Positions 1-39,577 of a DNA stretch of 39,577 bases are shown piece after piece. Source of the stretch: Escherichia phage vB_EcoP_IMEP24; sequence record MZ648215.1. One strand, written 5' to 3'. The number at the start of each line of letters is the position of its first letter. Within the stretch, counting starts at the first letter, position 1. The notes beneath the pieces were generated by a model. The model ran no database searches. It was not told the origin of the DNA and was given only the letters and a program-made list of their open reading frames with translations. The translations under genes were made by a program, and so were the position numbers.

Positions 1-184
1 TCTCACACTTCAAGAACCTCAAGTCTCCCCCATAGGCCCTCTTTCAGTCCAGACCAAGGGTGGCCCACCTCCAGTCTATCATAGGGTTGGACCGGCTGTC
101 AATATCTCAAGTCAACGATTGGTCATGACTATCGGTGGTGGTGGTGACGATAGGTTGGGACTATTGGTCTGTCTCTGAGTCTTT
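1..184. repeat. Left direct terminal repeat (184 bp), identical to 39394..39577
   Basis: First 184 nt of the window recur exactly at the last 184 nt; T7-like genomes carry direct terminal repeats of this size class. Confidence 0.9.
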
Positions 185-199
185 ATCTGTATAACCATA

Positions 200-279
200 A
201 GTCCAACAACCTACAGTCCAACAACCTACAGTCCAACAACCTACAGTCCAACAACCTACAGTCCAACAACCTACAGTCA
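200..279. repeat. Tandem array, 5 perfect copies of 15-bp unit AGTCCAACAACCTAC, just inside left terminal repeat
   Basis: Read directly: agtccaacaacctac x5 then partial copy; CCTACAGT motif recurs at 302-322 and near right end. Confidence 0.9.
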
Positions 280-577
280 CAGACCATCGGTAAAGCCATT
301 ACCTACAGTCAGAGACCTACAGTTAATAGACACAAAGATATAGACTTAAGGTCAAAGACATGTTAGTCAAAGACTATATCATCTTAGTCACTATGGGGCC
401 GACGATAGCTTAATCAATATTATTTCAAATTAACTATTGACTACAGGTCTCGATTATGGCTTAATAGCTTCCGTCAACACGACACGGCAACAACCGGATA
501 GTGAAGACGCCGGGTCATCCCGGTCAAGTAGACAGCCTGATAAGTCATACGAAAAACAGGCAGATGACAGAAAGTAG

Positions 578-2618: not shown

Positions 2619-5300
2619 ATGAGCGTCATCTCTATTGACAAACACGACTTCTCTGATGTGTCGAACGCCATTGAGCCGTTTAACCTGCTGGCTGACCACT
2701 ATGGGCAAGACCTTGCAGTCAAGCAGCTTCAGCTTGAGCATGAGGCATACACTGAAGGTGAGCGACGTTTCATTAAGAACCTTGAGCGCCAGACCGAGCG
2801 CGGGGAACTGGCAGACAATCAGGTCGCTAAACCTCTGATGCAAACGCTGGTTCCGACCATCGCTAAGGCTTTCCGTGAGTGGCATGAAGGCCCGGAAGGT
2901 AAGTCATCGACCTCGCGTCCAAGCGTAGCGTTTACCATGCTGAGCACTGACGAGAAGGCTGTAAAAGACCGCTCTCTGCTAATCTCTGCGGAGTCTGCTG
3001 CGGTTATCATACTGAAGGTCATCCTCTCCAAGCTGGTCAAGCCTGAAGGGATACCGATAACTCCTATGGCATCCGCGATAGGTCGCACACTGGAAGATGA
3101 AATCCGCTTTGGTCGCATACGTGAGCAGGAGCAGGAGCACTTCAAGAAGACCATAGCGGAGAACCTGAAGAAACGCGCTGGCGCAAGCTACAAGAAAGCC
3201 TACATGCAGGCAGTCGAGGCGTCTATGCTTGAGCAGGGGCAACTGGCTGACGCTTGGGGGACTTGGAGTCCTACCGAGGCGGTACACGTTGGCATCAAGA
3301 TGCTTGAGATTGTCATCCAGTCCACACAACTGGTCGAGCTTAAGCGTTATGGTGCTGGCAATGCGGCGGCTGACGTTGAGATGGTCCACCTGTCAGACTT
3401 CTGGGTCAAGAAGATGGCACAACGTGGATTCAGCCTTGCGGGTATCGCACCAGTCTATCAACCTTGCGTCGTTCCACCTAAGCCGTGGACGGGTGTCGTA
3501 GGCGGTGGGTACTGGGCCAAAGGTCGCAGACCGTTACCATTGATTCGCTTAGGGTCTAAGTCTGCGGTAGCACGTTACGAAGACGTGTACATGCCTGAAG
3601 TCTATGACGCTGTGAACATCATTCAGAATACACCTTGGAAAGTTAACAAGAAGGTTCTGGACGTGGTGAACATGGTCGAGAAGCTGAACAACACGCCTAT
3701 TGATGACATCCCTCAAATGGAACCACTGAAGCCTGAGGACTATGCGGGTGAGACTGAAGAAGAACTCAAGGCATGGAAGAAAGCTGCTGCTGGTATCTAT
3801 CGCCGCGAGAAGGCCCGACAGTCACGCAGATTGTCGCTGAGTTTTATCGTCAGCCAAGCGAACAAGTTCTCGCAGTTTAAGGCTATCTGGTTCCCGTACA
3901 ACATGGATTGGCGCGGTCGCGTCTACGCTGTACCGATGTTCAACCCTCAGGGTAACGACATGCAGAAAGGTCTCCTGACTCTGGCAGTCGGAAAGCCTAT
4001 TGGCGCTGATGGTTTCAAATGGCTGAAGGTCCACGGTGCAAACTGTGCGGGTGTCGATAAAGTCACCTTCGAGGAGCGCATCAAGTGGGTGGAAGACAAC
4101 CACGACAACATCATGTCTACCGCTAAGGCCCCGATGGACAGCATTGAGTGGTGGGGTAAGTTAGACTCTCCTTTCTGCTTCCTAGCGTTCTGCTTCGAGT
4201 ATGCTGGCGTAATGCATCACGGCCTGTCTTACTCCTGCTCGTTGCCGATAGCGTTCGATGGGTCCTGCTCTGGGATTCAGCACTTCAGCGCGATGCTTCG
4301 TGACCACATCGGTGGACATGCAGTAAACCTGACGCCTTCCGGTAAGGTTCAAGACATCTACCGCATCGTGTCTGACCGCATTGAGGAGGAGCTTAAAGTC
4401 CTGCTGGTTAACGGTACGGACAACGAGATGGTCACTCACGAGGATAAGAAAACTGGTGAGATTACCGAACGTCTCAAGCTGGGGACACGAGAGCTGGCCC
4501 GGCAGTGGCTGACTTACGGTATGTCACGCAAGGTAACTAAGCGTTCGGTCATGACTCTGGCCTACGGGTCGAAAGAGTACGGATTCGCAGACCAAGTTTA
4601 CGAGGACATCGTGATGCCAGCGATTGACTCAGGGTCCGGCGCTATGTTCACTGAACCAAGCCAAGCGTCTCGCTTCATGGCTAAGATGATTTGGGAAGCT
4701 GTTAGTGTGACCGTAGTTGCTGCGGTTGACGCGATGAAGTGGCTTCAAGGTGCTGCCAAGCTGCTGGCTGCTGAAGTGAAGGACAAGAAGACTGGCGAAA
4801 TCCTGAAGCCATGTCTTCCGGTACACTGGGTCACACCTGATGGTTTCCCGGTCTGGCAGGAATACCGCAAGAAAGATACCACTCGTCTGAACCTGATGTT
4901 CTTAGGGTCATTCAACCTTCAGCCTACGGTCAACAAAGGCACGAAGAAAGAGCTGGACAAGCACAAGCAGGAGTCAGGCATTAGCCCGAACTTCGTCCAC
5001 TCACAAGATGGTAGCCACCTGCGCAAGACTGTAGTCCACACGCACCGCAAGTATGGCGTGATGTCGTTCGCAGTGATCCACGATAGCTTCGGGACCATCC
5101 CGGCTGACGCTGAGTATCTGTTCCGTGGCGTCCGTGAGACAATGGTTGAGACCTACCGCGACAACGATGTGCTGCTTGACTTCTACGAGCAGTTCGAATA
5201 CCAGCTTCACGAGAGTCAGCGCGATAAGCTGCCTGAGCTTCCGAAGAAAGGTAAACTGAATATCGAAGACATCCTGTCTTCAGACTTTGCATTCGCTTAA
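2619..5300 (+). CDS. Single-subunit DNA-directed RNA polymerase (T7 gene 1 homolog)
   Basis: 893 aa; near-collinear with T7 RNAP incl. KAIWFPYNMDWRGRVYAV, HGANCAGVDK, LPxAFDGSCSGIQHFSAMLRD, VHSQDGSHLRK, IHDSFGT, C-terminal FAFA. Confidence 0.98.
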   Translation: MSVISIDKHDFSDVSNAIEPFNLLADHYGQDLAVKQLQLEHEAYTEGERRFIKNLERQTERGELADNQVAKPLMQTLVPTIAKAFREWHEGPEGKSSTSRPSVAFTMLSTDEKAVKDRSLLISAESAAVIILKVILSKLVKPEGIPITPMASAIGRTLEDEIRFGRIREQEQEHFKKTIAENLKKRAGASYKKAYMQAVEASMLEQGQLADAWGTWSPTEAVHVGIKMLEIVIQSTQLVELKRYGAGNAAADVEMVHLSDFWVKKMAQRGFSLAGIAPVYQPCVVPPKPWTGVVGGGYWAKGRRPLPLIRLGSKSAVARYEDVYMPEVYDAVNIIQNTPWKVNKKVLDVVNMVEKLNNTPIDDIPQMEPLKPEDYAGETEEELKAWKKAAAGIYRREKARQSRRLSLSFIVSQANKFSQFKAIWFPYNMDWRGRVYAVPMFNPQGNDMQKGLLTLAVGKPIGADGFKWLKVHGANCAGVDKVTFEERIKWVEDNHDNIMSTAKAPMDSIEWWGKLDSPFCFLAFCFEYAGVMHHGLSYSCSLPIAFDGSCSGIQHFSAMLRDHIGGHAVNLTPSGKVQDIYRIVSDRIEEELKVLLVNGTDNEMVTHEDKKTGEITERLKLGTRELARQWLTYGMSRKVTKRSVMTLAYGSKEYGFADQVYEDIVMPAIDSGSGAMFTEPSQASRFMAKMIWEAVSVTVVAAVDAMKWLQGAAKLLAAEVKDKKTGEILKPCLPVHWVTPDGFPVWQEYRKKDTTRLNLMFLGSFNLQPTVNKGTKKELDKHKQESGISPNFVHSQDGSHLRKTVVHTHRKYGVMSFAVIHDSFGTIPADAEYLFRGVRETMVETYRDNDVLLDFYEQFEYQLHESQRDKLPELPKKGKLNIEDILSSDFAFA

Positions 5301-5591: not shown

Positions 5592-6065
5592 ATGTTCGGT
5601 AAGTCAAAACTTGAAGCACAAATCGAGGAGTTGAGCATGAAGGTGGTATGTTTGAAGCGAGCCGTAGAGGTCCGGGACAAGGACAACGAGCGGCTGAAGG
5701 ATAAGCTCGCTGAAGCCGAGCGTAAGCGCCTAACGCCACCAGCGGCTGTAACCCTCAAGCGTATGGTCGGCATCAAGTTCAAGGCGCTGTTCGATGGTAA
5801 GTATCAGCCCACTGAGTTCAAGATAGGTCTTGGCAAGTGTGGGAAGGTGGTCAACTACTTCGAGGTGACTAAGCGTGAAGACCGGACGCTTACCATTCAC
5901 CAGTATCACACAGACGGGTCGTCTAAGGACTTCGAGTACCGACTCGGAGACATCGACGGTCGCATCCAGTATGACTACGAGCTGATGCAAGTCTACGGCG
6001 AGGAGGCAGAACGTGAGCGAGCGATTCAGGCATTCATGCAAGTAAGACCTCGCATCGTCATCTAA
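5592..6065 (+). CDS. Hypothetical protein (157 aa), coiled-coil N-terminus
   Basis: ORF; stop TAA is embedded in the downstream phage promoter; no recognised similarity. Confidence 0.55.
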   Translation: MFGKSKLEAQIEELSMKVVCLKRAVEVRDKDNERLKDKLAEAERKRLTPPAAVTLKRMVGIKFKALFDGKYQPTEFKIGLGKCGKVVNYFEVTKREDRTLTIHQYHTDGSSKDFEYRLGDIDGRIQYDYELMQVYGEEAERERAIQAFMQVRPRIVI

Positions 6066-6124: not shown

Positions 6125-6154
6125 CCCTATAACCTAAACAACTGGAGCTACAAC

Positions 6155-6334
6155 ATGTATCAGAACACTATCAACTTCGAGCGCATCCGTGAACGTCAGC
6201 AGACTGAAGATTATATTCCGAAGGGACGCAAGCTGAACAAGACCAAGCGTGGTGGTGGTGTCAAGGGTGCTTTCCGTAACGCTGAAGGTAAAGACTCTCT
6301 GGTAAACCAAGAGAAATACTTCGTAGGAGCATAA
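6155..6334 (+). CDS. Gene 1.1-like protein (59 aa)
   Basis: Below the ORF track cutoff; RBS ggag; shares KGRKLNKTKR with T7 gp1.1. Confidence 0.65.
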   Translation: MYQNTINFERIRERQQTEDYIPKGRKLNKTKRGGGVKGAFRNAEGKDSLVNQEKYFVGA

Positions 6335-8771: not shown

Positions 8772-9470
8772 ATGGCTAAAGAGCAACTGAAGACTTTCAC
8801 CACTCCGGTAGCTGGTATCGTTGAGCCGTACGCATGGCTGAACAAAGCAGACACCAAGTTTAACGAGCGTGGTGAGCATAAGGTTAACCTGACATTCGAC
8901 CTGAGCAACCCGAAGGTCCGTAAGATGATTGATGTCTTACAGAAGATTCACGACGATGCGTATGCGAAAGCACTCGCAGACCACGAGAAGAACCCACCTC
9001 AGGTTCAGCGTGGCAAGAAGCCTATTGAACCACGAGAAGGCGACATGCCGTGGATTGAGAATGGTGACGGTACTGTTACCCTGAAGTTTAAATGCTTCGC
9101 GTCTTACCTGAAGGATGGTAAGTCAGAGCCTATCGTATTACGGTTCTACGACACCGATGCTAAGTTAATCCGTGACGTCCCGAATATTGGCGCTGGCTCC
9201 AAACTGAAGGTCAAGTTTAAAGTCCTGCCGTTCAAGTGGAACGCTGCGACTGGTGCAAGCGTTAAGCTCCAGCTTGAGTCCTGCCTTCTGGTAGAACTGA
9301 AGGAGTGGAAAGGGGATGGTGCTGGTGGAGATGGTGGCTGGGGTGATGATGAAGACCTCGGTACTGGCTACAAAGCGTCAACCGATGGTGACTTCGGGTC
9401 TGATGACTTTGGTGACGATGGTTCCGAAGGCGGTGACGACTCCAACTCTGGTGGCGATTACGACTTCTAA
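8772..9470 (+). CDS. Single-stranded DNA-binding protein gp2.5
   Basis: MAKE...AEPYAW, GDMPWxxNGDGT, SKLKVKFK..VKLQLESxxLVEL, acidic C-terminal tail ending DYDF, as in T7 gp2.5. Confidence 0.93.
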   Translation: MAKEQLKTFTTPVAGIVEPYAWLNKADTKFNERGEHKVNLTFDLSNPKVRKMIDVLQKIHDDAYAKALADHEKNPPQVQRGKKPIEPREGDMPWIENGDGTVTLKFKCFASYLKDGKSEPIVLRFYDTDAKLIRDVPNIGAGSKLKVKFKVLPFKWNAATGASVKLQLESCLLVELKEWKGDGAGGDGGWGDDEDLGTGYKASTDGDFGSDDFGDDGSEGGDDSNSGGDYDF

Positions 9471-32100: not shown

Positions 32101-33072
32101 AACTACCTGTTAGATGCTGGACGTCAAGGATTCCTGTCCGACATCGTGGAGCATAGTCTGACTGGCAGTAAGCGTCGATTCGATGACCGCTGGCTGAAGA
32201 CCGCTGGTATCTCTGACGAGCAGTGGAAGGGCATTAAGTCCCTAATCCGTGAGTCAGTGACGCGTGGTCCAGACGGGAAGTACACCATCAAGGATAAGAA
32301 GGCGTTTAGTCAGGACCCAAGGGCTATGGACCTGTGGCGTATGGGTGACACCATCGCTGACGAAACGTTACTCCGGCCCCACAAGCTGTCAAACATGGAC
32401 GCCAAGGCTTATGGTCCTCTCGCTAAGACTGTCCTTCAGTTTAAGAACTTCGTCATCAAGTCCATCAATGGACGTACCATGCGAACCTTCTATAACGCCA
32501 CGAAGAACAACCGAGCGATGGACGCTGCTCTGTCCACTGTGATCTCTATGGGTCTTGCTGGTATCTACTACATGGCTCAGGCGCATGTCAAGGCTTACGC
32601 TATGCAGGATGGTCGAGACCGTGACTACCTCAAGCAAGCTCTGGACCCGACGATGATTGGATATGCAGCTCTATCACGTAGTTCACATCTTGGTGGACCA
32701 CTTGGGGTAGCTAACATTCTTGGGGGTATAGCTGGGTATGAGGACACTAAGATGCTCCGTTCGTCTATCCTACCTCGTTCTCCCACAGAGAAGCCTGAAC
32801 GTGCCATCGCGTATGGTGCAGCTACAAGTGACCCTGTGATGAATATTGTTGGTAACTTCTTGGAGCAGGTTCCAGCTTTCGGATATGCTGCTAACGTTGG
32901 CGCTTCGGCTTACAACTTGGCTGGATACCTCAAGGCCGATACTCGTGTCAACGAGCGTGACTACATGACCGGGATGTATAATACGTTCCGTGAACTGGTT
33001 CCTAACGACCCAATTACCCAGAAGCTGTTACTTGGAACGTTTGAGGAGCAAGGTATCCACATCAAGGACTAA
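29185..33072 (+). CDS. Internal virion protein D (T7 gene 16), with N-terminal domain unlike the T7 transglycosylase domain
   Basis: From about aa 190 on collinear with T7 gp16 (TGGSPxNL, AGxIGAGVDPLxYVP, RLEARETARN, VRSPTGMQSGASGK, ENPAxFG, GTYVPHVY, YGISHxxQF, GLxxNSFLEARNLFDSD, RRVNGDIAIMxxTGKTTK); N-terminal ~130 aa (MATRGIRNNNPGNIR...) diverge. Confidence 0.95.
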   Translation: MATRGIRNNNPGNIRVSKDQWEGMTGDDGAFVTFDSPESGVRALGKNLLSYGRQGYDSIEKIINRWAPPNENDTKAYIDSVVAATGIPATQSLDLSDPDTLSSLAQAISFHETGSRYDPEVYQQGVARALNGISPKTPPVSANVFDALTEGLKAKPKVALGENLPTAAGLNIEGQAPEAPNESFGEMFYKSTGETMQEREDRSTWFGFGAATEAEVKNSMVGVAVRAGQTEDSLDVIGDVFNPTRWNNHKWSREELDQIRNAGVLPQYYGVITGGSPQNLTKLINLALENQKLDQEKAKAGTGAQLAAGVIGAGVDPLTYVPIAGQVGKGGKLINKMFTVAAQSGALAGVSEMARTSVAGGDAHVAEAILGGALFGGGMTAIADGLGRALGRNTNEFAGPATRLEARETARNVDGQDLSRLPIQEGEPTFTHQGVKFADVPNEPGSVRLEDGSILIGENPLNPKTRQVFDEVIEPERAAAGVNLGGLTEIGLKLLRSENPEIRGVAADLVRSPTGMQSGASGKIGTTASDVFERLRAVDHRFYNDIDDAVTEALKDPYFQTAFWRDSGAFRQDIYQRVSMAIEDGSGNLKAELTPGELKVYDLLKNQFDAKREMMENPAMFGRTDAQSIFPGSRFKGTYVPHVYSKQMKELYIKELGSPEALQEAIKKSWLTSYASRPEVKKRVDEALLEADPTLTPEGLAAAVDKYANDKAYGISHTEQFERSSVMEENINGLVGLENNSFLEARNLFDSDMSIVLPNGQTFSVNNLREWDMDKIVPAYNRRVNGDIAIMAGTGKTTKDMKDLVETMMNKAGDDGKLKGEVSTLRDTLKILTGRARRDGADDAAFATVMRTMTDLSFFAKNAYMGVQNLTEIGGMLARGNVRAMLHGVPIFRDLAFRNKKVGASEIKDLHNVIFGKELDDSIRPSKQDVIDRLRSYSDLGRGAATALGTAKYYTGELAARSPLTKVLNGTTNYLLDAGRQGFLSDIVEHSLTGSKRRFDDRWLKTAGISDEQWKGIKSLIRESVTRGPDGKYTIKDKKAFSQDPRAMDLWRMGDTIADETLLRPHKLSNMDAKAYGPLAKTVLQFKNFVIKSINGRTMRTFYNATKNNRAMDAALSTVISMGLAGIYYMAQAHVKAYAMQDGRDRDYLKQALDPTMIGYAALSRSSHLGGPLGVANILGGIAGYEDTKMLRSSILPRSPTEKPERAIAYGAATSDPVMNIVGNFLEQVPAFGYAANVGASAYNLAGYLKADTRVNERDYMTGMYNTFRELVPNDPITQKLLLGTFEEQGIHIKD

Positions 33073-33090
33073 ACTATCACTATAGGAAAC
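33068..33090 (+). promoter_or_regulatory. Phage RNAP promoter (phi17-like)
   Basis: ctaaactatcactataggaaac; +1 G at 33085. Confidence 0.8.
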
Positions 33091-33136
33091 GGGAGGCGCT
33101 ACCATAGGTCTCCATTTAAATCACAAAGGAGGCATA

Positions 33137-35320
33137 ATGTCCACGATTACACAATTCCCTTCAGGAAACACTCAGTACAGGATTGAGTTCGACTACCTAG
33201 CCAGAACGTTTGTTGTTGTTACGCTGGTGAATAGCTATAACCCTACCATGAACCGTGTACTGGAAGTTGGTCGAGATTACCGATTCCTTAATCCAACGAT
33301 GATTGAGATGTTGGTTGACCAATCAGGTTTCGACATCGTTCGTATTCACCGTCAGACTGGAACTGACTTAGTGGTAGACTTCAGGAATGGCTCAGTGTTG
33401 ACAGCTAGTGACCTGACCAATGCAGAGCTTCAGGCTATCCATATTGCAGAAGAAGGTCGAGACCAAACGGTTGACTTAGCGAAGGAATATGCCGATGCTG
33501 CTGGTAGCTCTGCTGGCAACGCTAAGGATAGCGAGGACGAAGCACGACGAATCGCTGCGAGTATCCAGGCAGCTGGTAAAATTGGTTATATTACCCGTCG
33601 CTCCTTCGAGAAAGGCTTCAACGTTACAACATGGAACGAGGCCCTGCTATGGGAAGAGGATGGTGATTATTACCGCTGGGATGGTACGCTTCCAAAGAAC
33701 GTTCCTGCTGGTTCAACTCCTGAATCATCTGGTGGTATTGGGCTAGGTGCGTGGGTTAGTGTTGGTGATGCTTCATTACGATCGGCTCTACAGGCAGAAG
33801 ATGGTGCAAAAAATATTGGCTCTGGTAAAAGAAAGCTGATTGATAATTTGAATGACATTAAACACAGTGGTGATTATTCAACTTTACAACAGGCGATTAA
33901 TGATACCACCTCAAGGGGTCGGGTTCTTGTTTCTCCAGGCGTATATAGCGAAAGCGTTTCAACCGGCAATGCTGACATTGAGGGTTCTGGTTATGCATCT
34001 TTATTAAAAACAGGGAGTGAAGATTATGCAATTAAAGTATTACAATCAGTGCCACACTGGGAGCGTCGAAGTATTTCAAAAATAAGCCTACAAGGAACAG
34101 CAACACCTAATTCCGTGGGGGTGCTATATGACCCGGATGATATGCTCTCTGGGAGATGGGATATCAGTTATGTAGGTATGGCTGACTTTGGTGTTTGTAT
34201 TAAAAAGCCAACTGGCAATATAGGTAATACATATCAAACTGTTAACTTCAGAGCTTCTGAGTATGGGTATCGTGCTGAAAGCGTGACTGGCATGCATTCT
34301 GGCTGCGATACATTTCGTGACTGTTATTTCCAAGGGATATCCAAATACTGTATTGATATAGTGAATGCTCAAGATGGCGGTGGATCTGTGCAAATTCAAG
34401 ATAGCATCATGGAGCAATGCACTGGTGGTGGCATAAGGATTGACTATAATAACATTGTTCCTTATACACCTATTGTTATACGAAACGTATGGTTTGAACT
34501 CATTGCTACGGCATCTACCATTGACCGCGATGGTTCTGAAGAAGTTCCGAGACAGGTTAAATTAATAAACACACCACAGGCATACGTTGAAGAGTCATAC
34601 TTAACTAATATTGAATTAATTAACTCAAACTTAATTGCGCGTAACTGTCGAATTGACACTGTTAGTTCGAATATTTACAGCATGAACGTTGACGCTAATA
34701 GTTCATTTATTGTTGAGAATCTTTATGCAGGGGGGGAAGTTGGCGGAGTCCCGATTATTAAAAGCGTTGCATCTCAATCTGGATTATTTGCGAGTAGTAA
34801 CTTAAGTTTGCGTGGAACTCCCACGGTGCAAGCTATCAAGGGGGCCATGGGGTATCATGGCACTGTACGTGCAGCAGATTTATATTCAGGGGTTGTTGGT
34901 TCTACTACGTGGACATTCCCGGGCACGGAAGAAGTAACAGCAAACTGTGTAGAAGATGGAGTGGCAATTGGTTATGGTTGTGCGGAAGTATCAATCAATG
35001 CTGGGTCATCACAGTTAAGTTCAGAAATTGCCACAATAACTGCCGGGAAGTGGTATGTATGGGGGGTTAACGCTAAACTTGTTTCTGGGACAGGAAACTT
35101 TAGATTCTCAGAATATATTTCAGCAGGTGTTATCTATACACAAGACGGCAAATGGACAAGCACTTTCGGTATTGGAAAAGCGCAATCATCAGGAACAATT
35201 CGATTGTATCTTACTGCACAAACTGACACCGTTATTAGATTGCAAAACTTTTTTATTGTTGAGTTCAATACGGAGGCTGATGCTTTGGCATTTTGTAATG
35301 CGAGAGTTGCAATAGGTTAA
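33137..35320 (+). CDS. Tail fibre / tailspike (gene 17): T7-like N-terminal anchor plus probable beta-helix receptor-binding/depolymerase-type domain
   Basis: N-terminal ~150 aa match T7 gp17 anchor (FxYLARxFVVVTL, DYRF, VDFxxGSxLxAxDL, QxxHxAEExRD); remainder unrelated to T7 fibre and AT-richer. Confidence 0.9.
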   Translation: MSTITQFPSGNTQYRIEFDYLARTFVVVTLVNSYNPTMNRVLEVGRDYRFLNPTMIEMLVDQSGFDIVRIHRQTGTDLVVDFRNGSVLTASDLTNAELQAIHIAEEGRDQTVDLAKEYADAAGSSAGNAKDSEDEARRIAASIQAAGKIGYITRRSFEKGFNVTTWNEALLWEEDGDYYRWDGTLPKNVPAGSTPESSGGIGLGAWVSVGDASLRSALQAEDGAKNIGSGKRKLIDNLNDIKHSGDYSTLQQAINDTTSRGRVLVSPGVYSESVSTGNADIEGSGYASLLKTGSEDYAIKVLQSVPHWERRSISKISLQGTATPNSVGVLYDPDDMLSGRWDISYVGMADFGVCIKKPTGNIGNTYQTVNFRASEYGYRAESVTGMHSGCDTFRDCYFQGISKYCIDIVNAQDGGGSVQIQDSIMEQCTGGGIRIDYNNIVPYTPIVIRNVWFELIATASTIDRDGSEEVPRQVKLINTPQAYVEESYLTNIELINSNLIARNCRIDTVSSNIYSMNVDANSSFIVENLYAGGEVGGVPIIKSVASQSGLFASSNLSLRGTPTVQAIKGAMGYHGTVRAADLYSGVVGSTTWTFPGTEEVTANCVEDGVAIGYGCAEVSINAGSSQLSSEIATITAGKWYVWGVNAKLVSGTGNFRFSEYISAGVIYTQDGKWTSTFGIGKAQSSGTIRLYLTAQTDTVIRLQNFFIVEFNTEADALAFCNARVAIG

Positions 35321-35332
35321 CTTGACATCCTC

Positions 35333-35357
35333 CACGCCCTAAAGGGCGGGGCTTTTC
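35333..35357 (+). terminator. Putative weak rho-independent terminator after gene 17
   Basis: CGCCC-TAAA-GGGCG hairpin followed by GCTTTTC; only four T. Confidence 0.4.
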
Positions 35358-35370
35358 GGATAATTATTGA

Positions 35371-35457
35371 TCAGAACGGGATATCGTCATCGAAGTCCAT
35401 TGGCGGCTCATTACCTCCTTGTGGGCTTTGTTGTTTTGGTGGCTGATGTTGTCGTTG
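35371..35457 (-). pseudogene. Fragment homologous to the 3' end of a bacterial ssb gene (SSB C-terminal tail), antisense to phage genes
   Basis: Minus-strand translation QRQHQPPKQQSPQGGNEPPMDFDDDIPF-stop; last 13 residues equal the recalled E. coli SSB C-terminus (SNEPPMDFDDDIPF); in-frame stop directly upstream, no OB-fold region. Confidence 0.6.
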
Positions 35458-35693
35458 CTAAAAACCATCAAATATCAAAGGCTCTGATGGTTCCCATCTC
35501 TTTACTCTGACTACTGATGACGTAACTGTTAAAGACGTTAATGTGGTTACGACCCTTACTGCTGCCTCTGTGCCATTGGAGTCCTGAACCGGGTAGAGGA
35601 TCGAATGTTGTGGAGGTAGAGGCGAACTACACGCTGACCAACGTATGGTAACAACTTTGGGTCACGGACGACCCGCTTTAAACTGGAGGTTTT

Positions 35694-35888
35694 ATGATTG
35701 AGTTAGACTTCAAGAATGAGGTCCTTAAAGCCTCTCCTATCGTCGGGACCGCTGCGGCTGATGGTGCCAGTCGGTTCTTCTTCGGACTTACACTGAACGA
35801 ATGGTTCTACGTTGCAGCTATCGCGTACACCGTTGTCCAGATTGGTGTGCTAGTCTACAAAACGATTAAAGGAGGTGGTAAAACATGA
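35694..35888 (+). CDS. Class II holin (T7 gene 17.5)
   Basis: LDFxNExxKAxPIVGT, FFGLxLNEWFYVAAIAYTVVQIG matches T7 gp17.5; RBS ggagg. Confidence 0.92.
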   Translation: MIELDFKNEVLKASPIVGTAAADGASRFFFGLTLNEWFYVAAIAYTVVQIGVLVYKTIKGGGKT

Positions 35889-36204: not shown

Positions 36205-36480
36205 ATGACTAAGATAATGGAACGCAGAGCTGCCTATTATAAGCAGGTATACAAGGTGGACTTACAGACTCTAATTGGTATTCTAAAAGAGCAGGGAGGC
36301 TATGAGATATGTGGAAAGAGTATCTCTTTTGAAGGTGCAAAGGTAACAGCTCGCGTGGACCACTGCCACTCTACTGGAGCTATACGTGGTATTATATGCA
36401 ATAGGTGTAATCAGGCACTTGGTATGTTTGGAGATAACGTAGAGGGCATCTACAAGCTCTTAGCATACCTAGGCAAATAG
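36205..36480 (+). CDS. Endonuclease VII-like HNH nuclease (91 aa)
   Basis: DHCHSTGAIRGIICNRCNQALGMFGDN is the His-Me finger motif of the T4 endo VII family (DHDH..G.VRGLLC..CN..G); RBS taggaggg. Confidence 0.75.
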   Translation: MTKIMERRAAYYKQVYKVDLQTLIGILKEQGGYEICGKSISFEGAKVTARVDHCHSTGAIRGIICNRCNQALGMFGDNVEGIYKLLAYLGK

Positions 36481-39393: not shown

Positions 39394-39577
39394 TCTCACA
39401 CTTCAAGAACCTCAAGTCTCCCCCATAGGCCCTCTTTCAGTCCAGACCAAGGGTGGCCCACCTCCAGTCTATCATAGGGTTGGACCGGCTGTCAATATCT
39501 CAAGTCAACGATTGGTCATGACTATCGGTGGTGGTGGTGACGATAGGTTGGGACTATTGGTCTGTCTCTGAGTCTTT
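39394..39577. repeat. Right direct terminal repeat (184 bp)
   Basis: Identical to 1..184. Confidence 0.9.

Follow-up and report, generated by a model that had tools for sequence, protein, structure and literature searches.

Stacked gene remnants beside the tailspike gene of the T7-like phage IMEP24, among them an antisense ssb 3' end that very probably came from a siphovirus as the flank of a tailspike cassette

The window analysed here, 39,577 nt in length, is the complete genome of Escherichia phage vB_EcoP_IMEP24 (IMEP24), a T7-like phage of the genus Kayfunavirus (Studiervirinae) with terminal direct repeats of 184 bp, whose closest relatives are other members of that genus. The gene 17 tailspike is followed by a gap of 373 nt and then by the holin gene, 3' of which lie the small terminase, an endonuclease VII-family gene, Rz and the large terminase. 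The preliminary description of this DNA placed all confident genes on the + strand, and both ORF content and promoters agree: the 30 ORFs of at least 100 aa on that strand sum to 10,731 aa, against 2,188 aa for the scattered minus-strand ORFs, and each of the 12 copies of the T7-type promoter CTWAACTATCACTATAGGRA is on the + strand. Within the gap, on the minus strand, is the 3' end of a bacterial-type ssb gene, which must be regarded as foreign to IMEP24 because the phage encodes its own gp2.5-type SSB (8772-9470). The features of the locus are collected in Table 1.

Table 1. Genes, gene remnants and junctions between the tailspike and holin genes of IMEP24 (coordinates refer to the whole window).
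Feature	Position	Strand	Description
Gene 17 tailspike	33137..35320	+	727 aa; Pfam PF03906 and PF18668
Conserved anchor end	33661..33775	+	77-80% nt identity to siphovirus tail-fibre genes of Sa179lw and BS5
Spacer with modest GC hairpin	35321..35370	.	Stem 35335-35339 / 35344-35348, loop TAAA, then GGGGCTTTT
ssb 3' remnant	35371..35457	-	28 codons plus TGA (QRQHQPPKQQSPQGGNEPPMDFDDDIPF*); lacks OB fold and start codon
gp34-like remnant	35458..35493	-	Last 11 codons (EPSEPLIFDGF) plus TAG; like Sa179lw gp34
Right junction of primary capture	35482..35492	.	About 11 nt, CTCTGATGGTT, common to siphovirus- and Kayfunavirus-type DNA
Gene 17 fossil, Penshu1-type	35483..35651	+	Last ~57 codons, frameshifted (tblastn)
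Holin (17.5)	35694..35888	+	Pfam PF10746; first intact gene past the patch

Retranslation of 35371-35460 on the minus strand gave the SSB-like tail exactly as first reported, with its 28 codons at 35457..35374, a closing TGA at 35373..35371 and, directly 5', the in-frame TAG that had also been pointed out (35460..35458). The stump consists of a disordered linker followed by the acidic tip D-F-D-D-D-I-P-F, and its sole Met codon (35400..35398) stands nine codons from the end and, as had been stated, 13 nt from an AAGGAGG. With a TAG upstream, the stretch does not amount to an entire SSB reading frame equipped with its own start codon and ribosome-binding site. It had been remarked that nothing resembling an OB fold is present, and a tblastn search of 35200-35800 with the SSB proteins of phages Vi II-E1 and BS5 found no further ssb either, all segments outside the last 28 residues having E > 0.8. 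The likeness to an SSB tail is not a product of chance, the first of two circumstances that would have spoken against it, because only ~4e-10 exact occurrences of PPMDFDDDIPF are expected in a genome of this size (under uniform residue use) and because blastn of the stump region against 2.3 Gb of phage DNA returned annotated ssb genes with E values down to 4e-27. The second circumstance, a conserved + strand gene running through the same stretch, does not apply: a 47-codon ORF with a TTG start (35367-35510) was considered and rejected as not conserved, because relatives lack 35371-35410. A search of the patch for known RNAs in Rfam gave only a sub-threshold match to HgcC (24 bits against a gathering score of 50), dismissed as chance.

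The preliminary description took the fragment for the captured 3' end of a host, plasmid or prophage ssb gene; the capture is upheld by an 88-nt match to ssb, but the cellular donor is not. It is true that the last 13 residues of the stump equal those of E. coli SSB, and that 2001 E. coli genomes match 44 nt of it at 90-93%. However, in blastn searches of 5,426 E. coli genomes and 72,556 plasmids, the ssb1 gene of the chromosome and the ssb of plasmids alike matched this 44-nt acidic tip only, at 90-93%, leaving the linker uncovered. By contrast, 88 nt including the Q/P-rich linker match the 3' end of the ssb gene of siphoviruses of ~45-48 kb (PF00436; BS5 gp44 and Vi II-E1 VIP0041, for example) at 85-93% nucleotide identity. 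Matching annotated genes in the phage collection, at 85-91% to the stump, belong to BS5 and STGO-35-1 (both Skatevirus), Vi II-E1 (Macdonaldcampvirus), SB28, LPST10, seszw and Akira. With its C-terminus QRQQQQPKQQSPQGGNEPPMDFDDDIPF, the SSB of BS5 shares 26 of 28 residues with the stump peptide (tblastn of this protein against the 600-nt neighbourhood, E 6e-18). The matching codons cover part of the linker and the acidic tip PPMDFDDDIPF; what the IMEP24 stump lacks in comparison with the siphovirus genes is the OB fold, the start codon and ~130 upstream codons. The closest allele is a full-length ssb on an IMG/VR contig (L016; 92.9% nt identity, with five synonymous and one non-synonymous codon differences), and the actual donor genomes are absent from the collections, in which nothing nearer than this 92.9% was present. 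Identity is 91% to a remnant in phage Sa179lw, described below, and 88.6% to BS5 ssb. Differences between the stump and functional ssb alleles are mostly synonymous, which should be the expectation for a recently severed piece of a selected gene. Because the linker, the junction with gp34 (see below) and the best overall identity all favour a siphovirus ssb, we consider it very improbable that the stump was captured directly from a host chromosome, plasmid or prophage. The suggestion of a recombination scar recording exchange with cellular DNA thus holds as to the scar and fails as to the cellular source, linker and tip together matching the ssb of virulent siphoviruses.

The place of ssb in the genomes of these siphoviruses is informative. 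In Vi II-E1 and BS5 it lies on the opposite strand to a tailspike/tail-fibre gene and tail-to-tail with it, in the same position and orientation as the stump in IMEP24, with erf, exoVIII and helicase genes behind it. A scan of IMG/VR with an invariant 20-mer of the ssb linker retrieved 24 contigs, 20 of which have an opposite-strand ORF of 220-989 aa that ends 34-440 nt past the ssb stop; for three of the remaining four the downstream DNA is too short to tell. The siphovirus ssb end and the terminator adjoining it, AAAA(A/C)TAACCCCGCCGAAGCGGGGTTTT, are conserved, homology breaks at the end of that terminator, and past it the sequences belong to about ten classes that are unrelated to one another. 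From this conserved end with unrelated DNA beyond it, we infer that the ssb 3' end is the constant right border of a variable siphovirus tailspike cassette; given that the two genes converge, a crossover slightly downstream of the 3' part of the tailspike gene would carry the ssb 3' end along. Such an end, full or reduced to a stump, adjoins tailspikes in Skatevirus, Macdonaldcampvirus, Buchananvirus, Kayfunavirus and a P22-like prophage. The last of these, in E. coli isolate 602, has an ssb stump 46 nt after its tailspike, cut at another 5' point and frameshifted at the tip; being independently cut, it indicates that this hitchhiking of ssb happened more than once. A matching stump was found in one of 5426 complete E. 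coli genomes.

The TAG directly upstream of the ssb stump has an origin of its own: it is the stop codon of a second truncated gene, since the frame above it matches the last 11 residues of the gp34 protein of Sa179lw (Buchananvirus), which ends in KPSEPLIFDGF (tblastn), and the DNA at 35459-35492 is 97% identical to Sa179lw DNA (L006, 4620-4653). In Sa179lw and in two IMG/VR contigs of Buchananvirus-like siphoviruses (L018 and L021), ssb has been cut to 38-39 codons that abut the stop of an intact, 151-aa gp34, so that the gp34-stop/ssb junction, the frame and the site after a tail-fibre gene are common to these three and IMEP24; L018 and L021 also have TAG as the gp34 stop. The IMEP24 stump differs from these remnants in retaining only 11 codons of gp34 and in lacking 30 nt (10 codons) of ssb, in frame, between CAAC repeats. 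Because the siphoviruses retain a complete gp34 and IMEP24 no more than 11 codons of it, transfer would have proceeded from siphovirus to Kayfunavirus. The record of Sa179lw annotates gp34 as a 'putative type III restriction endonuclease'; a Pfam search of the protein yielded no family, and the parent of the second stump therefore keeps the record annotation only.

Overlapping the end of the gp34 remnant, and on the + strand, is a third remnant that belongs to the Kayfunavirus side of the junction. Gene 17 of the Kayfunavirus Penshu1 encodes 913 aa, of which the first 218 match the IMEP24 tailspike (91.5% nt identity over IMEP24 32806-33757), and its last 172 nt align to IMEP24 35482-35651, which is intergenic (92.9% nt identity from 35482 onward). 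By tblastn the C-terminus of the Penshu1 tail fibre is recovered there as two pieces in different frames, SDGSHLFTLTTDDVTVKDVNVVTTLTAAS (35483-35569, 86%) and GSNVVEVEANYTLTNV(W*) (35598-35651, with 81% over 35598-35645); parts of this fossil carry the annotation 'hypothetical protein' in relatives. Since homology to Sa179lw ends at 35492 and homology to Penshu1 starts at 35482, the two kinds of DNA appear to have been joined through about 11 nt of microhomology. The first account of this locus spoke of an intergenic patch containing an antisense ssb fragment; the fragment is real but does not stand alone, and the patch is, to judge by these homologies, a stack of three gene fossils that the exchange of tailspike cassettes left behind.

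The tailspike gene itself is composite. In its product a T7-tail adaptor (aa 10-115) and a Tail_spike_N domain (aa 151-211) precede the receptor-binding body, which is encoded from ~33781 onward. The gene has Kayfunavirus relatives that are homologous to it only up to 33769-33775. From 33781 to 35347 the DNA is 93.2% identical over 1567 nt to the tailspike region of a P22-like prophage (L035), found in an E. coli assembly at the argW/yfdC locus together with Arc/Mnt, antirepressor, Head_binding tailspike and integrase genes. This homology extends 27 nt past the tailspike stop and into the spacer hairpin, to 35347, and L035 contains no ssb stump. Parts of the body are also present on the contig L036 (92.8%), where convergent HNH and SNF2 genes come after the tailspike, and in an SU10-like podovirus, L037 (89%). 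At the nucleotide level E. coli RefSeq genomes offered only short matches of 70-78%, the 93% match being a Logan contig that was reached via protein search. The spacer hairpin of IMEP24 folds at -14.3 kcal/mol (z -1.5) and was not called by the terminator scan. Because its exact 23-mer, CCCTAAAGGGCGGGGCTTTTCGG, is absent from IMG/VR, the search did not lead to the direct donor of the spacer. We also considered whether the hairpin is a hybrid of prophage flank and siphovirus terminator, which have GGCGGGG in common; so short a match cannot support the idea, which we mention as a suggestion only.

The right part of the patch, from the Q/P half of the ssb stump through the gp34 stump to the gene 17 fossil, recurs in many Kayfunaviruses of Salmonella and E. 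coli: at least 80% of a 120-nt probe is covered in 15 records, and dozens of others have an internal deletion. The right-hand junctions are identical in all relatives that carry the patch, and the alignment to IMEP24 starts at about 35408-35427 in the group of KE05, CHRF and ST, at 35456 in PH1061, at 35468 in NS1, at 35482 in Penshu1 (in which the older gene is intact) and at 35600 in LM33_P1. Breakpoints are thus found at the edges of the stump, the length of which varies among relatives. A comparison with the closest relatives, proposed at the outset as a check on whether the patch is present in them, accordingly met with truncated versions only, each with the same right-hand junction, and the DFDDDIPF tip was seen in none of the other T7-like records sampled. 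That the intact tip is unique to IMEP24 among T7-like records might suggest an assembly chimera with reads from a co-isolated siphovirus. Yet dozens of Kayfunaviruses that originate from several countries and were sequenced independently share the right two-thirds of the patch, junctions included, and the tip is contiguous with both the patch and the tailspike flank across joins that do not look like read-end artefacts, which makes such a chimera scarcely credible.

Taken together, we conclude that the stump is very probably a non-functional, 88-nt end of a siphovirus ssb gene, forming the downstream flank of a tailspike cassette that was acquired horizontally by a Kayfunavirus; its arrival as a cassette flank is argued from the fact that ssb in the donor group converges tail-to-tail on a tailspike gene. 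The way in which the homologies are arranged speaks for at least two events, and we propose their order from shared junctions. A Kayfunavirus ancestor with a Penshu1-type gene 17 would first have acquired Buchananvirus-type siphovirus DNA, with a left crossover in the conserved end of the anchor/Tail_spike_N region (~33760-33775, within the stretch 33661-33775) and an illegitimate right join at the ~11 nt of microhomology (35482-35492), which would have left the final 172 nt of the previous gene 17 stranded as a fossil. Slippage between the CAAC repeats may then have deleted 30 nt of the stump. Finally, the receptor-binding body would have been replaced again, and differently in each lineage: in IMEP24 by one from a P22-like-prophage-type tailspike (33781-35347), with a right junction inside the hairpin that would have spared the whole stump, and in KE05/CHRF/ST, PH1061, NS1 and LM33_P1 by replacements that presumably removed progressively more of it. 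The intact tip of IMEP24, found in no other T7-like phage, could be ancestral in this scheme, or could have been re-imported by a crossover inside the stump. Similarly, that the 28-codon frame is intact, though neutrality does not require it, can be put down to the youth of the fragment or to gene conversion from a functional ssb.

Most probably the stump does nothing for the phage today, and neither its transcription nor its translation is to be expected. The C-terminal tip of SSB is a protein-interaction hub, peptides that mimic it exist, and IMEP24 encodes the identical terminal DFDDDIPF. A short expressed decoy peptide was raised in the preliminary description as the less likely of two explanations; such a peptide (MDFDDDIPF or longer) would imitate the SSB tip and titrate host SSB partners. 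For it one may cite the intact tip, the ATG before DFDDDIPF, the AAGGAGG upstream and a frame unbroken for 28 codons; against it, the AAGGAGG 13 nt from the ATG represents QGG codons shared by all ssb alleles, the 12 phage-promoter matches lie without exception on the + strand, and the sole sigma-70-like site on the minus strand is downstream of the ATG, so that no phage or sigma-70 promoter was found to drive the stump on that strand. In addition, the tip has been deleted in every other T7-like relative sampled and is frameshifted in the E. coli prophage copy, and the differences from ssb alleles are those of a recently cut gene. We judge the decoy highly unlikely. The likeness of the stump to an SSB tip is apparently inherited rather than functional. 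Taken alone, the fragment is most probably a harmless fossil, and the notion that the phage encodes an SSB-tip decoy can be abandoned.

A different possibility is that the + strand of this DNA has taken on a role as part of a transcription terminator or attenuator between gene 17 and the lysis and packaging genes, in which the antisense glutamine codons (TTG/CTG) would supply a U-rich tract. In KE05- and CHRF-type phages a hairpin, ACCCGC-TTCG-GTGGGT, is situated on the remnant and is followed by TTTTGTTGTTTTT (-12.3 kcal/mol, z -2.0), and in IMEP24 the spacer hairpin and a TTTT precede the stump. The IMEP24 hairpin is modest, though, and went uncalled by the scan; LM33_P1 and Penshu1 do without the element; and termination by T7 RNA polymerase is beyond the prediction tools used. 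Because the stump is downstream of the hairpin, it would not be needed for a terminator in IMEP24. We therefore regard this role as unlikely for IMEP24, and the hairpin with its U-tract on the KE05-type remnant as a possible minor co-option there.

It is more tempting to speculate that stump and terminator together serve as a downstream homology arm for the exchange of receptor-binding cassettes across phage families, a reading that is compatible with an origin as a scar and adds to it a selected, or at least consequential, role. Some 50-120 nt next to tailspikes are common to siphoviruses, some P22-like prophages and Kayfunaviruses; an ssb stump flanks a prophage tailspike as well; and the siphovirus ssb end and terminator are conserved, with ~ten classes of sequence beyond them and convergent ORFs of 220-989 aa. 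Contigs L017, with a full ssb, and L018, with a remnant, have their tailspike-side sequence in common. Remnant tips vary between DDDIPF and DDSIPF just as functional alleles do, which is what overwriting in the course of exchanges should produce, and the Q/P half of the IMEP24 stump is 97.9% identical to Akira ssb while the tips differ by 10 nt. Motifs flanking receptor-binding domains have, moreover, been proposed as recombination hotspots by Pas et al. 2023 (PMC10408124). On the other hand, the right junctions of Kayfunaviruses are spread over the patch without clustering in the stump (~35347, ~35408-35427, 35456, 35468, 35600) and look like erosion via illegitimate joins; L035, the prophage closest to the IMEP24 receptor-binding body, has no stump; and the single matching stump among 5426 complete E. 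coli genomes also tells against such an arm. We consider a homology arm conceivable and, on balance, doubtful. With similar reserve, one may entertain the broader hypothesis that the siphovirus ssb 3' end, its terminator and the descendant stumps constitute a portable 'docking sequence' for cross-family tailspike exchange. If true, T7-like phages and siphoviruses, both virulent, and temperate P22-like prophages would have this sequence in common beside their tailspike genes; it would pair with the conserved end of the anchor domain on the other side and allow the cassette to be traded by homologous recombination; and with every exchange a functional ssb would overwrite the stumps and so keep them fresh and in frame.

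Irrespective of such a role, the scar is an ordinary kind of feature, unusually well resolved, and not a new mechanism. Gene remnants at novel joints, generated by illegitimate recombination, are a hallmark of phage mosaicism under Hendrix-type models. IMEP24 likewise has sharp joins at or near gene ends, one of them with microhomology, and uneven erosion in sister lineages; it does not differ in principle, but it is unusually complete, with three fossils from three genes in 373 nt. Unlike the functional ssb genes of the siphoviruses, the ssb stump resides in a T7-like phage that has a gp2.5-type SSB and transcribes the other strand only. Literature searches for an ssb stump beside tailspike genes found no earlier description. 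Conserved DNA flanking receptor-binding domains has already been proposed by Pas et al. 2023 (Virol J 20:174, PMC10408124) to act as recombination hotspots, including a 20-nt terminator motif, in genera among which is Kayfunavirus. The conserved anchor end of IMEP24 (Table 1) lies where their motif 1/2 is placed, and both sets of flanks are cross-genus, a likeness that refers to their description in the text and not to the motif sequences. Their text does not mention ssb; in the present case the downstream flank proves to be the 3' end of a gene that converges on the tailspike gene, together with its remnants.

The value of the fragment is that of a marker: three stumps in 373 nt provide an almost base-by-base record of exchange, according to which a T7-like phage has changed its receptor-binding protein at least twice, using siphovirus DNA and DNA of the P22-like-prophage type. 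By the same record, entries named 'hypothetical protein' in dozens of relatives can be recognised as debris of gene 17. The convergent ssb 3' end gives a concrete gene-level identity to the conserved flanks that have been proposed to guide host-range swaps (PMC10408124), and it suggests natural junction points for the engineering of tailspike exchange in Kayfunavirus candidates for therapy.

Among 5,426 complete E. coli genomes, the full minus-strand ssb fragment was matched in isolate 602 only. There, in a P22-like prophage integrated at argW, a decayed ssb stump has the terminator of the tailspike on one side and the 3' end of intS on the other. A second conserved terminator, AAGGCCCCGAAAGGGGCCTTTTCTCTAC.CTTCTGATA, follows the tailspike and is common to the P22-like prophage, a contig that carries convergent HNH and SNF2 genes after its own tailspike, and an SU10-like podovirus; it may be the element that Pas et al. 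2023 call 'motif 3'.

In the KE05- and CHRF-type Kayfunavirus relatives, the cut-down ssb remnant carries a UUCG-loop hairpin (ACCCGCTTCGGTGGGT), which appears to be a reshaped form of that remnant; antisense glutamine codons make up the U-rich tract that comes next. Hairpin and tract together, placed directly past the tail-fibre stop, form a terminator-like element. An Rfam match to HgcC RNA over the hairpin and ssb tip of the window (35309-35409, minus strand) scored 24.2 bits (E 0.0018), below the gathering score of 50, and was judged to be due to chance. Elsewhere in the patch, the CHRF, ST66 and ST63-type relatives are missing a stretch of about 56 nt (window ~35510-35565) from the gene-17 fossil (compared at ~2755 of the CHRF-type record, L004), another instance of the patch being eroded piece by piece. 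Many Kayfunavirus records label short ORFs in the interval from gene 17 to the holin gene as 'hypothetical protein'; these overlap the fossil and are probably not genes.

Coordinates of features in the window and in related records
Feature	Location	Strand	Remark
Penshu1-type gene-17 3' end, frameshifted fossil	window 35483-35651	+	overlapped by relatives' 'hypothetical protein' ORFs
Fossil-overlapping 'hypothetical protein' ORF regions	L003 (KE05-type) 3108-3242; L004 (CHRF-type) 2725-2835; L033 (Kayfunavirus record) 1548-1724
Second post-tailspike terminator	L001 (isolate 602) 3950-4000; L036 (HNH/SNF2 contig) about 5930-5980; L037 (SU10-like podovirus) about 6130-6180
UUCG-loop hairpin on ssb remnant	L003 3003-3040; L004 2655-2695
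P22-like prophage region with decayed ssb stump	L001 1805-5576		E. coli isolate 602, NZ_OW968111.1
Endonuclease VII-family gene (PF02945)	window 36205-36480	+	between small terminase and Rz genes

The endonuclease VII-family gene is present in CHRF_20120 and absent from KE05, KE14, LM33_P1, PH1061 and Penshu1, and therefore behaves like a mobile insertion. The genome is bounded by perfect 184-bp terminal direct repeats (window 1-184 and 39394-39577). A tandem array at the left repeat's inner end (window 178-293) comprises about six units of 15 nt each (AACCTACAGTCCAAC).

In Buchananvirus-like siphoviruses, the ssb remnant (38-39 codons; Sa179lw, L006, 4501-4621, and two IMG/VR contigs, L018 and L021) is in-frame with an intact upstream gp34 gene, and a single TAA or TAG is all that separates the two. 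Because one junction is common to all three records, the shared frame could be a one-in-three accident. If the gp34 stop codon were read through, gp34 would gain the SSB linker and acidic tip.
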